Source: a virus
Taxonomy: Duplodnaviria > Caudoviricetes
Virus record (IMG/VR): IMGVR_UViG_3300011337_000669
Length of the DNA stretch: 64,000 bases
Direction: 5' to 3' (one strand)
The number at the start of each line of letters is the position of its first letter. The first letter of the stretch is position 1. The notes beneath the pieces are model-generated. The model was given only the letters and a program-made list of their open reading frames with translations. It was not told where the DNA came from and did not search any database. Positions 1-55,690 of this stretch are shown here, in pieces. A program made the translations under genes and the position numbers.

Positions 1-216
1 CATTAAAGCTACTTGTACAGTAGTAAACCAATCATGACTATCGAAACTTTTAATCCAATTACTAAAGTTGAATGAGGTGTCAGGCCGTAATATACCAATA
101 CCAGTCAAGACTTGTTCATTCGTAATGTTTTCAGTCAAAGTCTTGGACACGTTATAATTCATAATCAATTTTATTCTTTCAAATAAATCGTGACTTTCTG
201 ATATTTTTTTTGGCAT
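1..216 (-). CDS. Partial protein (runs off left edge) with MPKKISESHDLFERIKLIMNYNVSKTLTEN leader
   Basis: Manual translation of the reverse strand; not in ORF track. TATTTAT motif upstream at 236-242. Confidence 0.7.
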   Translation of the reverse strand, partial: MPKKISESHDLFERIKLIMNYNVSKTLTENITNEQVLTGIGILRPDTSFNFSNWIKSFDSHDWFTTVQVALM

Positions 217-264
217 TTTATTTTTATTATTAACTATAAATAGTAGATTTATAAAAAAAAGGAA

Positions 265-579
265 ATGATATCAAGAGGAAGCCAAATTACGAATGTAAGA
301 AATAATACTATCCACATTGTTGACGATATCGAAGTCATCAATGGAGAAAAATTAATATTCACGGAGGATACAAAATGTTTTCCATACCATGAATGTGAAT
401 TAGTCCAAAATTCCTCTATTGAACACACAAATTTCACTAAAAATTTGATTGATAATCTAAAACATTCCGAATTGGATTTGGGGGAATGGTCCCCTCGTGA
501 ATTTATTCCTAAACCAAAAATAAAGAAAAACTTTTTATCCCGTTTTTGGGATAAAATTATTTACACCTTTACCTACTAA
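265..579 (+). CDS. Hypothetical protein
   Basis: 104-aa ORF filling the gap between neighbours. Confidence 0.55.
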   Translation: MISRGSQITNVRNNTIHIVDDIEVINGEKLIFTEDTKCFPYHECELVQNSSIEHTNFTKNLIDNLKHSELDLGEWSPREFIPKPKIKKNFLSRFWDKIIYTFTY

Positions 580-583
580 AAAT

Positions 584-54173: not shown

Positions 54174-54419
54174 TTATGCATTTTTAAGTCTTGGCTCCCA
54201 ATAACTTCTATTCACCCACATGAACTGATAGAATTCTCGAAACATTCTCAATGTAATATCTTTAACCTCACCTTCGAGTTTTCCTCGTTTGATTTCACTT
54301 TGAATCCTGTCCATTAAATGTTCTTCAAATTGTTTAATGGTGTTATGGCTCATAAAGGATTTTATTTCTTTACGAATCATAACTTCTATTTCTTTTTGTT
54401 CTGAACTTGTAAGTGCCAT
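54174..54419 (-). CDS. Hypothetical protein
   Basis: ORF coupled to upstream gene. Confidence 0.6.
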   Translation of the reverse strand: MALTSSEQKEIEVMIRKEIKSFMSHNTIKQFEEHLMDRIQSEIKRGKLEGEVKDITLRMFREFYQFMWVNRSYWEPRLKNA

Positions 54420-54844
54420 TAGTTACTAATTAATAAAAGTGATGTTAATCCTATTCCAACAAAGGCCCCAACTTTCCATAGAAATGTTTTAGCTCTTTGA
54501 CCTTTTAATTCTTTATATAAATTATCAGTTAATTCTTTGGATAGTTTAAGTTGTTCATCTTTTTTCCCAATGATGAACTGATTGTTTTCATCTTTCTGTG
54601 TTAAAATAGTAATTATACCATCCTTTTGAATTTCTCGTTCTTCCAATTTTTGAAACTTTAGTTTCATTAAACTTACTTCCTCTTTCAACCCATCATACCT
54701 TAATAAGTCTTGATATACTAGTCTTGCAACTTTTACATCGAGGACAACTTTGGAAGTATCAACTGTTTTAGTTTGAATAACGGTCTGCGAAAAGCTTCTC
54801 GAGCTCAGCATTACCAATAAAACCAACACTAATAACTTTTTCAT
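54419..54844 (-). CDS. Secreted coiled-coil protein with C-terminal TM (spanin-like candidate)
   Basis: Signal peptide, coiled coil, C-terminal hydrophobic helix. Confidence 0.5.
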   Translation of the reverse strand: MKKLLVLVLLVMLSSRSFSQTVIQTKTVDTSKVVLDVKVARLVYQDLLRYDGLKEEVSLMKLKFQKLEEREIQKDGIITILTQKDENNQFIIGKKDEQLKLSKELTDNLYKELKGQRAKTFLWKVGAFVGIGLTSLLLISN

Positions 54845-55118
54845 CAGTTTGTTCTTTTACCATTTCTATACTATTATCGATGTTATGAATCTCTTTAGTA
54901 ATTGAATTAACTGTTTCCTTAATTACCAAAACTTTTTCATCCATCTCTTTGTTAACCAACTGTACAGAATCTACTTCAACTTGAATATTTTCAATTTTTT
55001 TCTTGTAGGATTTTACATCGGTTTTAATACTATTGGTATTCAAAATATTCCATAACGCCAATATTATTATTATCCCTAATAATATGTTTTGTCTATTATT
55101 GATTATTTTTTCCCTCAT
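54768..55118 (-). CDS. N-terminal TM plus coiled coil (i-spanin-like candidate)
   Basis: Overlaps downstream gene by 77 nt; near amidase. Confidence 0.5.
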   Translation of the reverse strand: MREKIINNRQNILLGIIIILALWNILNTNSIKTDVKSYKKKIENIQVEVDSVQLVNKEMDEKVLVIKETVNSITKEIHNIDNSIEMVKEQTDEKVISVGFIGNAELEKLFADRYSN

Positions 55119-55690
55119 TATATTGGTGATTCCTTCGTTTTTTTTCTACTAGCTAAAACTTTACCCCACTTAGACTTAAATTTTTGATAGAATTGTTGTA
55201 ATTTATTTATCATAGTAAGGAATTCACTATCAACCTTAATCATTTCACCGTTAATATAAATTCCACTATCTTCTCCGATTGTAAAAATAAATTCAATATC
55301 TTCATCGATAAGTTTTCCTGACCATTCAACACTATTTTTATATACGTTAAGGGTTTCGAAGTCAACCAAATCGGAAACCTCCTCAACGAATTCATCCATA
55401 GTCTCTTGGAAAGCAACTTTCTCATCAGTGGTGATATCCAAATCACTTCTATCTTTACCATGAAGTTTCAAGATACCACCAGAAATTCTGTATTTTTGTG
55501 ATTTGTCCTTTGGTGTTGGTTCTTCCCCATCCTCAACGTCAGTCTCGGCAGTATCATACTCAACATCTTGAGCGATTCTACTCTCAACATCTTTCGCAAC
55601 GTTTATTTGTCCGTCTTGCTCAAAGAGTAATTTGGACTTCTTTAATAGAGATTTAATCTCATCGTACCTTTCGTTATGTAAATTGCTCAT
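55118..55690 (-). CDS. Acidic hypothetical protein with MSNLHNERYDEIKSLLKKSKLLFEQ leader
   Basis: ORF. Confidence 0.65.
   Translation of the reverse strand: MSNLHNERYDEIKSLLKKSKLLFEQDGQINVAKDVESRIAQDVEYDTAETDVEDGEEPTPKDKSQKYRISGGILKLHGKDRSDLDITTDEKVAFQETMDEFVEEVSDLVDFETLNVYKNSVEWSGKLIDEDIEFIFTIGEDSGIYINGEMIKVDSEFLTMINKLQQFYQKFKSKWGKVLASRKKTKESPI

Follow-up and report, generated by a model that had tools for sequence, protein, structure and literature searches.

The 64,000-nucleotide DNA of IMG/VR record IMGVR_UViG_3300011337_000669, from a tailed virus (Duplodnaviria; Caudoviricetes) and referred to here over its whole length as the window, contains 13 genes whose proteins begin with one of three short conserved leaders, designated type A (eight genes), type B (two), and type C (three). 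The consensus sequences are MKYIITES (A), MxKIIKLTESDLxRxVKRVIxEQ (B), and MNLQEDIxRIKEVMG(h)hxE (C). The best-supported mechanism, judged from sequence patterns and from analogy with phage T4 and given a probability of about 0.5, is that these leaders serve as capsid-targeting propeptides of the T4 kind that have been expanded into a small set of interchangeable tags.

A search of the window, translated in six frames, with hidden Markov models (HMMs) of the three leaders gave 13 N-terminal matches well above noise, plus one internal copy at residue 402 of the open reading frame (ORF) at 584-3109. All 13 leader-bearing starts listed in an initial annotation correspond to ATG codons of ORFs, and the other leaders quoted there are also present; about seven further window genes have such looser variants, two of which recur in G001, an IMG/VR relative of the window. 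The 13 genes, named below by the position of their start codon, are the following.

4703..5008, minus strand: type-A-like gene, MKYQINQS.., 101 residues; about-100-residue "YLD" family; second in an operon behind 5336.
4992..5336, minus strand: type-A gene, MKVIITES.., 114 residues; YLD family; TATTTAT 5 nt before the ATG.
7354..7683, minus strand: type-A gene, MKYIITESQYELL, 109 residues; a homologous body has a type-C tag in another phage.
8873..9460, minus strand: type-A gene, MKYIITEEQY, 195 residues; only the first ~30 residues in common with 7683; TATTTAT 6 nt upstream.
11574..11906, minus strand: type-A gene, MKYIITSS.., 110 residues; YLD family; TATTTAT 5 nt upstream.
17823..18134, plus strand: type-A gene, MKYIISEQRL, 103 residues; YLD family; TATTTAT 4 nt upstream.
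18198..18461, plus strand: type-A gene, MKYIISESRL, 87 residues; YLD family; TATTTAT 4 nt upstream.
18458..18742, plus strand: type-A gene, MKYIISESRL, 94 residues; YLD family.
6364..6768, minus strand: type-B gene, MGKIIRMTEADLSRLVKKAIQEQ, 134 residues; only 23 residues in common with 33041.
32679..33041, minus strand: type-B gene, MAKIIKLTESDLTRVVKRVINEQ, 120 residues; PG_binding_1-like body.
18750..19679, minus strand: type-C gene, MNLQEDIDRIKEVMGINE followed by G, 309 residues; paralogue of 20325.
19684..20325, minus strand: type-C gene, MNLREDINRIKEVMGINE followed by S, 213 residues; TATTTAT 4 nt upstream.
22387..22926, minus strand: type-C gene, MNLQEDIHRIKEVMGMISE followed by Q, 179 residues; body unrelated to those of 19679 and 20325.

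A scan of IMG/VR with degenerate DNA patterns of the three leaders identified at least 120 type-A, at least 119 type-B, and 86 type-C loci. Among the matches listed, which are on viral contigs, every leader is located at an ORF start (434/434, comprising 141 A, 163 B, and 130 C), and the HMM matches in the window and in G001 are N-terminal save for the one internal copy. After removal of the leaders, the non-identical proteins among the matches listed formed clusters unlinked by BLAST at E < 1e-3, numbering 31 for A, 94 for B, and 30 for C. A word-based search with the type-B tag region returned 16 matches, mostly close homologues, on the E-value scale of 5.8 billion sequences, which is too strict for a 23-residue tag. 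G001 contains about 26 clear tagged genes by HMM and roughly 40 when variants after TATTTAT are included, and its capsid gene is flanked by two tag-B genes.

Within the window itself, six of the eight type-A genes (5008, 5336, 11906, 17823, 18198, and 18458) are full-length paralogues belonging to the ~100-residue family, and 19679 and 20325 (two of the three type-C genes) are paralogous over their full length. Similarity is limited to the first 22-30 residues between 7683 and 9460, between 6768 and 33041, and between 22926 and 19679/20325, and the 13 clear cases represent about seven body families. No single paralogous family explains all leader-bearing proteins, since similarity is not full-length for all of them in either the window or the contig sets. 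The initial description of the tagged proteins as "otherwise unrelated" was therefore overstated for the window, where 8 of 13 are full-length paralogues, but it is apt for the relatives, given their BLAST-unlinked bodies.

The same body can also be found behind different tags. Four body families, including that of window gene 7683, occur behind tag A in one phage and behind tag C in a different one, and the swap junctions occur directly after ..IITEQ↓ and ..VINE↓ (arrows mark junctions here and candidate cut sites below). In the relative G003, the gene at 30301 (contig L351, about 10301, minus strand) begins with the same 23-residue tag B as window gene 33041, with no detectable similarity between the two bodies; flanking synteny places both genes at about the same position, and the pair looks like an in-place replacement of one cassette by another.

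The leaders are conserved as peptides. In the window, their codons vary freely at synonymous sites (Ile as ATT, ATA, or ATC; Thr as ACA, ACC, ACT, or ACG), and across 111 (A), 141 (B), and 71 (C) distinct DNA copies from viral contigs the synonymous sites are saturated while the amino acids are invariant. Because leader codons differ at synonymous sites, selection acts on the leader peptide and not on the DNA; conservation at the DNA level was rejected on the same ground.

Conservation ends at a defined boundary. The information content of type B is ~3-4 bits through ..LTExDLxRhVKRVIxE, 1.4 bits at the next Q, and about 0.5 bit thereafter. Among the matches listed, an [ILVM]-x-E motif ends 4-5 residues after the VK anchor in 91 of 94 type-B cluster representatives and 3-4 residues after the MG anchor in 26 of 30 type-C representatives, compared with 6.6% in random 6-mers of the bodies, although these counts come from homologous tags and are not independent trials. 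At the level of sequence, the leaders do end in an [IL]xE-type motif, as was proposed. The candidate cut sites are IITE7 in A; LTE9 plus [IVL]xE22 in B; and MG(h)hxE18-19 in C.

The window has a guanine-plus-cytosine content of 33% and tightly packed small ORFs. No tRNA gene was found in it by ARAGORN and there was no match to Rfam. Searches of cultured phages gave no megablast match to a 20-kb piece of the window and no tblastn match to a 495-residue window protein, and IMG/VR relatives (G001, G003, G004, and G005) were used to stand in for its whole genome. The sigma-70-type factor encoded in the window (57405-58202, minus strand) matches genes of five IMG/VR records (294-321 kb) at 65-83% identity; all five are rated 100% complete by CheckV, and one has direct terminal repeats. 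Each of the four sigma-matching records searched encodes a Peptidase_S77 protein (the T4 gp21-type prohead protease) and a Gp23-type major capsid protein (4/4; G001, G003, G004, and G005), and PHROGs confirmed the protease, portal, and large terminase of G001. The gp21-like protease that was to be sought elsewhere in the genome is therefore present in these four relatives and also in 12 larger tag-bearing contigs: among the MKYIITES contigs searched, those with S77 comprise 12 records of up to 288 kb and 19-92% completeness, and the 36 without it are all fragments (CheckV completeness 5-43%). By major capsid protein, the nearest cultured phage is Flavobacterium phage immuto (42% identity), in which no MKYII[ST]E start was found with up to two mismatches allowed. 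Bacteroidota-type TAnnTTTG motifs are located upstream of several window genes.

Taken with the sigma-factor identity, the S77 and Gp23 proteins of the relatives, and the immuto capsid protein, these motifs place the window in an uncultivated lineage of T4-like phages with genomes of roughly 300 kb, and the hosts are probably Bacteroidota. All tag carriers look like members of one lineage of about 290-320-kb T4-like phages, which may correspond to the recently described "moraphages," an aquatic Bacteroidota jumbo-phage lineage with similar features (PMC12619734). The term "N-terminal" is absent from the moraphage paper, and no such tags are reported there (PMC12619734). The window is syntenic with G003 from 24 to 64 kb; its tag-rich first 24 kb is almost wholly different from G003, which has its own tagged genes there. 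Genes around the sigma-70-type factor (57405-60000, minus strand) have TAnnTTTG and not TATTTAT motifs upstream, which suggests an early block read by the host polymerase next to late cassettes.

In T4, gp21 cuts after Glu in L/I-x-E, and the 10-19-residue propeptides of the internal proteins are capsid targeting sequences (CTSs) (PMC9026906, PMC5694885, PMC3012670). T-even internal proteins are diverse and have only the CTS in common (PMC9026906, PMC5694885, PMC3012670), and Alt loses six residues, at ITE-6 (PMC9026906, PMC5694885). The cleavage rule cited in the initial annotation agrees with this literature (PMC9026906, PMC5694885) and with the T4 record, in which Alt begins MELITE, IPI reads MKTFKEF..STITE↓A, IPII and IPIII both read MKTYQEFIAE↓A, and gp21 reads MNEPQLLIE↓T. 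In G001, the capsid protein sequence H-L-I-N-E60↓A aligns with the T4 gp23 cut site F-L-T-E65↓A, and the protease (107417-108133, minus strand) has the N-terminus MKNLRILE↓A, to be compared with that of gp21. A 232-residue protein beside the G001 portal gene contains 5.2 [IL]xE per 100 residues (99th percentile of the genome; T4 gp22 has 5.95). From the aligned capsid site, the protease N-terminus, and this [IL]xE-dense protein, the specificity of the head protease would be conserved in the lineage. The G001 protease and capsid genes are separated by a gene for an extremely acidic 525-residue protein (L134:9183-10760, minus strand) with long D/E/M repeats and no PHROG match, which by position is a putative scaffold. 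A complex prediction with a 45-residue tag, this putative scaffold, and the 232-residue core protein scored 0.00, with poorly folded chains, and speaks neither for binding nor against it.

Tagged genes also have an upstream sequence in common with head genes. The window has 28 copies of the motif RTATTTATW where 11.4 are expected, and 0 of 100 shuffles contained as many as 28. Most copies are positioned 4-19 nt before a start codon; the copy at 9466..9474 (minus strand) is an example of this late-promoter-like motif. As had been proposed, most leaders follow TATTTAT, which occurs within 40 nt upstream in 28 of 39 clearly tagged genes of the window and G001, mostly ending 4-6 nt before the ATG and with a second spacing mode at 15-19 nt. 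Examples in the window are at 5341-5349, 9466-9474, 11911-11919, and 17811-17819, with others in G001 (L136-L152), and five of the six window tagged genes without the motif are directly behind a gene that has it. In G001, TATTTAT is upstream of the portal, protease, and putative scaffold genes and of several unannotated genes of tail-fiber or baseplate size (1,300-1,800 residues). Because it is shared with these genes, TATTTAT is read as a probable late promoter, and because it ends only 4-6 nt before the ATG, transcripts of the tagged genes would be leaderless or nearly so. The same TATTTAT spacing is found at untagged late ORFs.

Repeats are another feature of the window. An intergenic element of ~73 nt (..GGGGNTGGGGATT..ACGACCGAAGGGAGAAC..) is present in four copies that are 68-100% identical (8034-8106, 9476-9548, 11482-11554, and 11923-11995); three lie directly against a late-promoter motif, on its upstream side, and the copy at 11482-11554 has no motif within the upstream 45 nt. 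Seven homologous terminator-like hairpins (CCCCACC..GGGGTGGGG beside an A/T run) bound single-gene cassettes, at 5640-5678, 6311-6349, 6807-6845, 8841-8879, 9543-9581, 15137-15175, and 20348-20386. A 36-nt repeat occurs three times with an exact 66-nt period (3779-3946) within the coding ORF at 3546-4322 (plus strand). Two Cys-rich paralogues, at 11995-12735 (minus strand) and 27184-27969 (plus strand; preceded by a TATTTAT motif), are 37% identical over 256 residues (E 2e-45) and are possibly HNH or zinc-finger proteins resembling homing endonucleases.

An AlphaFold2 model of the ~100-residue (YLD) family of 18458, built from 31 sequences, has a mean predicted local distance difference test (pLDDT) score of 87. 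Residues 1-6 are modeled as low-confidence coil outside the fold, and a helix at residues 7-22 packs into the domain; the first eight residues of the family are nearly invariant and the rest averages 26% identity. In the model of 33041, of moderate confidence (pLDDT 72), residues 1-8 are extended and a long helix begins at Glu9. For both tags A and B, the models thus predict an MK-hydrophobic peptide that is exposed and leads into a helix with a T-E-S cap, and cutting at IITE↓S would, according to the model, leave the fold intact. Foldseek gave no match to the YLD-family model in the PDB at E ≤ 0.001.

The nature of the bodies is less distinct than was first proposed, and most of them could be assigned to no family. 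None of the small tagged proteins reached the cut-off in Pfam or PHROGs, and the cargo classes named in the initial annotation (DHH, LRR, GIY-YIG, and PG-binding) did not hold at that level, all of their Pfam matches being below the curated cut-offs. The PG_binding_1-like domain of 33041 is sub-threshold, as are the DHH, LRR, and GIY-YIG matches of the loosely tagged large proteins; weak phosphatase matches were also found. A tag-A protein of G001 has a clear YkuD L,D-transpeptidase domain and no signal peptide. Sec, Tat, or lipoprotein signals are not apparent in the tags, which have a charged residue every 2-4 positions and no uncharged core of 10 or more residues. Because ordinary signal peptides are used on other window genes (e.g., starts 15829, 21248, and 54844), peptidoglycan-directed bodies without them are weakly consistent with delivery by the virion. 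An anti-defense role for the cargo is speculation. Two further features of bodies were observed. A zinc-ribbon body, CxxCGWSW..DPYTCHxCGH, occurs in a 57-residue tag-A protein (e.g., contigs L058, L081, and L115) and in a 244-residue tag-C protein. The body of the 309-residue protein encoded at 18750..19679 (minus strand) matches Terpene_synth_C at residues 176-263 (28.1 bits against a Pfam cut-off of 26.3); phages would not normally be expected to encode a metal-binding domain like that of terpene synthases, and the match may be spurious.

Looser or variant leaders head the following window ORFs.

1..216, minus strand: loose type-C-like leader MPKKISE↓SHDLFERIKLIMN.. (..KTLTEN); 72-residue ORF with its 3' end beyond the window edge; TATTTAT 19 nt upstream.
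584..3073, minus strand: leader MKVILE↓G on a large ORF, 829 residues from the promoter-proximal ATG; HNH/homing-endonuclease-like N-terminal part.
5689..6276, minus strand: variant leader MNKSFSKIRHIQEANQRLEKRLMSE followed by Q and then a T/P/Q-rich linker, 195 residues; same leader on two G001 genes.
22928..23374, minus strand: variant leader MRDLIRKILHE↓E (MRDLIRKILHEE), 148 residues.
31279..32682, minus strand: loose leader MKKILKE↓S, 467 residues; sub-threshold DHH match.
33481..35007, minus strand: loose leader MKQIILAE↓IKKIITE↓R (MKQIILAEIKKIITE), 508 residues; sub-threshold GIY-YIG match; absent from G003.
45633..46958, minus strand: leader MKFTSLLKSIIVE followed by Q (MKFTSLLKSIIVEQ at 46958), 441 residues; sub-threshold LRR match.
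51672..53327, minus strand: leader ..DKLVSKILNE↓E, 551 residues, K/E-rich.

In G001, the leader of 22928..23374, in the general form MR[DE]LI[KR]K[IL]L[RH]E, heads genes of 455 and 142 residues (MRDLIKKLLREE and MRELIKKILREA), and that of 5689..6276, in the form MN[KR]S[FY]SKIRHIQE..LEKRL..E, heads the two genes noted in the list. The protein at 45633..46958 has a conserved orthologue in G003 (67% identity) and its leader is also found in G001, whereas the MKKILKE leader of 31279..32682 is, as a single case, indistinguishable from chance. Tag-like sequences are also found inside ORFs. The internal type-A copy, KEYIVTESQF (nt 1862-1906), heads a ~110-residue module of the 841-residue ORF at 584-3109, and residues 404-516 of that ORF are 35% identical to the body of 7683. 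A degenerate type-B-like stretch, LTLTEDELIDMIEQIVLEQ (about nt 52368-52430), is internal to the 51672..53327 ORF and is kept in G003. Such internal copies could mark polyproteins, or simply a helix start that can be used again; none of the readings considered below is favored by them over another.

In the capsid-targeting mechanism, single-gene cassettes, each composed of terminator, TATTTAT promoter, tag, and body, would be transcribed late in infection. The tag, in which an amphipathic helix comes after an extended MK-hydrophobic peptide, would dock the new protein on the prohead during its assembly, at the scaffold or core. Cutting by the S77 (gp21-type) head protease after Glu in [I/L/V/M]-x-E (IITE↓S in A; KLTE↓S plus VIxE↓Q in B; MG(h)hxE↓ in C) would then free the body within the head, for delivery with the DNA. 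This reading, first put forward in the initial annotation, gains from the T4-type relatives with S77 and Gp23, the N-terminal, portable, and swappable nature of the tags, their [ILVM]-x-E end, and the shared TATTTAT motif; docking to the core, cleavage, packaging, ejection, and the cargo role are what we infer from these features.

Several observations weigh against it. The tags have no alignable similarity to the T4 CTS (MKTYQEFIAE), and only MK, an aromatic or hydrophobic residue, and I-x-E are in common; T4 has 4-5 tagged genes, compared with about 26 clear and roughly 40 in total per genome here. About a quarter of random N-termini would contain a short [IL]xE motif, and the [ILVM]xE counts given above, being drawn from homologous tags, mark the end of a conserved unit and are not independent of one another. 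Strong conservation also extends beyond the first candidate cut site, and part of the tag would then be retained after cutting or have some other role; in the YLD-family model, the helix from residue 7 belongs to the fold. Tag copies are internal to two large ORFs (584-3109 and 51672-53327), and some loosely tagged proteins resemble homing endonucleases, an odd capsid cargo. Much of the apparent breadth of cargo in the window is paralogy. The S77 protease evidence comes from relatives, the window genome being represented by a 64-kb stretch, and tagged proteins used as tblastn queries against cultured phages gave no match at E ≤ 10; no cultured tag-bearing relative was found.

The strict conservation of the tags may alternatively reflect docking or sorting to a shared partner outside the capsid interior, such as a chaperone or unfoldase of the phage or the host, a structure other than the head that is assembled late, the membrane, or a pathway into the periplasm, with the terminal Glu forming part of a binding helix and not a cut site. 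Conservation over 8-23 residues, stricter and longer than T4 targeting seems to need and continuing past the first candidate cut site, favors this possibility. Basic residues flanking hydrophobic cores (KIIKL, KYII) resemble chaperone-binding peptides, and peptidoglycan-acting bodies (YkuD and PG-binding) must reach the periplasm. Moraphages, which may be the same lineage as the window, encode DnaK, DnaJ, and ClpA (PMC12619734). A docking peptide would, however, leave unexplained why three unrelated tags end in [ILVM]-x-E exactly where conservation collapses and why they are restricted to a lineage with the S77 protease; the tags also have no hydrophobic core like that of Sec, Tat, or lipoprotein signals, and ordinary signal peptides exist elsewhere in the phage. 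We consider it a somewhat unlikely explanation.

It is improbable that the leaders have no targeting function at all and are simply the best-conserved N-termini of fast-evolving paralogues, with the terminator-promoter cassette acting as a recombination joint that shuffles the bodies. Such a joint would account for the full-length paralogy of 8 of the 13 clear window cases, the repeats around tagged genes (the 73-nt element in four copies and the terminator family in seven), the tandem G001 genes with a common upstream GGGTCGTGATATTTATTG block, and the tag-like stretches within two large ORFs. The same upstream block nevertheless precedes differently tagged (A and C) G001 genes, and saturated synonymous sites with invariant amino acids argue for selection on the peptide and not for DNA homology. 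More than 150 BLAST-unlinked bodies and the A/C swaps call for a function of the peptide itself, and the invariant hexapeptide is outside the predicted fold. Proximity of TATTTAT to the ATG (4-6 nt in most tagged genes) and A/T-rich tag codons would be expected if the leaders optimized translation of near-leaderless late mRNAs, either through unstructured first codons or through a nascent-peptide effect. This is very improbable: many late ORFs with the same 4-6-nt spacing have unrelated N-termini (e.g., the 1,805-, 156-, and 375-residue proteins of G001), roughly one tagged gene in four lies inside an operon and lacks the motif, synonymous codons vary freely, and 17-23 ordered residues with helical periodicity and several tag types are unexpected from an effect at the RNA level. 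Since the promoter spacing is no different at untagged late genes, an effect on translation initiation was rejected.

A more extensive form of the capsid-targeting reading is tentative and, in our estimate, doubtful. In these ~300-kb Bacteroidota phages, at least three and possibly five interchangeable tags, each closed by a cut site, would bring roughly 26-40 different and quickly exchanged cargo proteins per genome into the capsid, to be delivered from there, peptidoglycan-acting enzymes and internally tagged polyproteins included. The choice of tag may determine where in the head a protein is placed, or in how many copies. If capsid targeting is correct, uncultivated freshwater jumbo phages have enlarged the T4 principle into a modular addressing system that marks about a tenth of the genes as virion cargo. 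Candidate injected proteins, likely counter-defense and host-entry factors, could then be listed from sequence alone, the hypervariable regions of single-gene cassettes would be explained, and ready-made short tags would be available to load foreign proteins into large capsids. If it is wrong, the tags are still among the most strongly conserved linear peptides in these genomes, with no known function.

The likeness to T4 extends to several features. As in the T4 CTSs and the Alt propeptide, the leader is short and N-terminal (6-19 residues in T4, 7-25 here), the same leader is placed on unrelated bodies (in T4, MKTYQEFIAE of IPII and IPIII), and it ends in I/L-x-E (T4 Alt MELITE↓ and IPI ..STITE↓; here MKYIITE↓, KLTE↓, and VIxE↓). 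The head module includes an S77 protease (here in relatives), and the accessory bodies are small, fast-evolving, and located in variable regions; in the window lineage, the tagged genes have a late-type promoter motif in common with head genes. Unlike T4, which has one tag type, these phages have at least three main types, together with two minor variants that recur and several loose leaders seen once each. Two of the main types, B and C, form amphipathic helices of 19-23 residues in which there are two candidate cut sites. The tags are much more strictly conserved than in T4, some large ORFs contain internal copies, and the system is known from sequence alone.

The phiKZ-like giant phages (phiKZ, 201phi2-1, and SPN3US) resemble the present lineage in their large genomes, their many packaged proteins, and the cutting of many head-internal proteins after Glu by a gp21 homologue. 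The SPN3US paralogues gp53 and gp54 are identical over their first 15 residues (PMC5694885), and paralogues with shared N-termini occur here as well. They differ in that their propeptides are mostly longer than 100 residues, their protease is of the S80 type and cuts at S/A-x-E with a small P3 residue and not I/L/V/M, and no portable tag on many unrelated bodies has been reported. The promoter-early stem-loop cassettes of T4-type phages are single-gene units with repeated terminator/promoter bounds, located in hyperplastic regions, whose bodies are swapped between related genomes. The cassettes described here are likewise repeat-bounded single-gene units with swapped bodies; they differ in having a late-type promoter and a conserved unit that reaches into the protein, with selection on the peptide.

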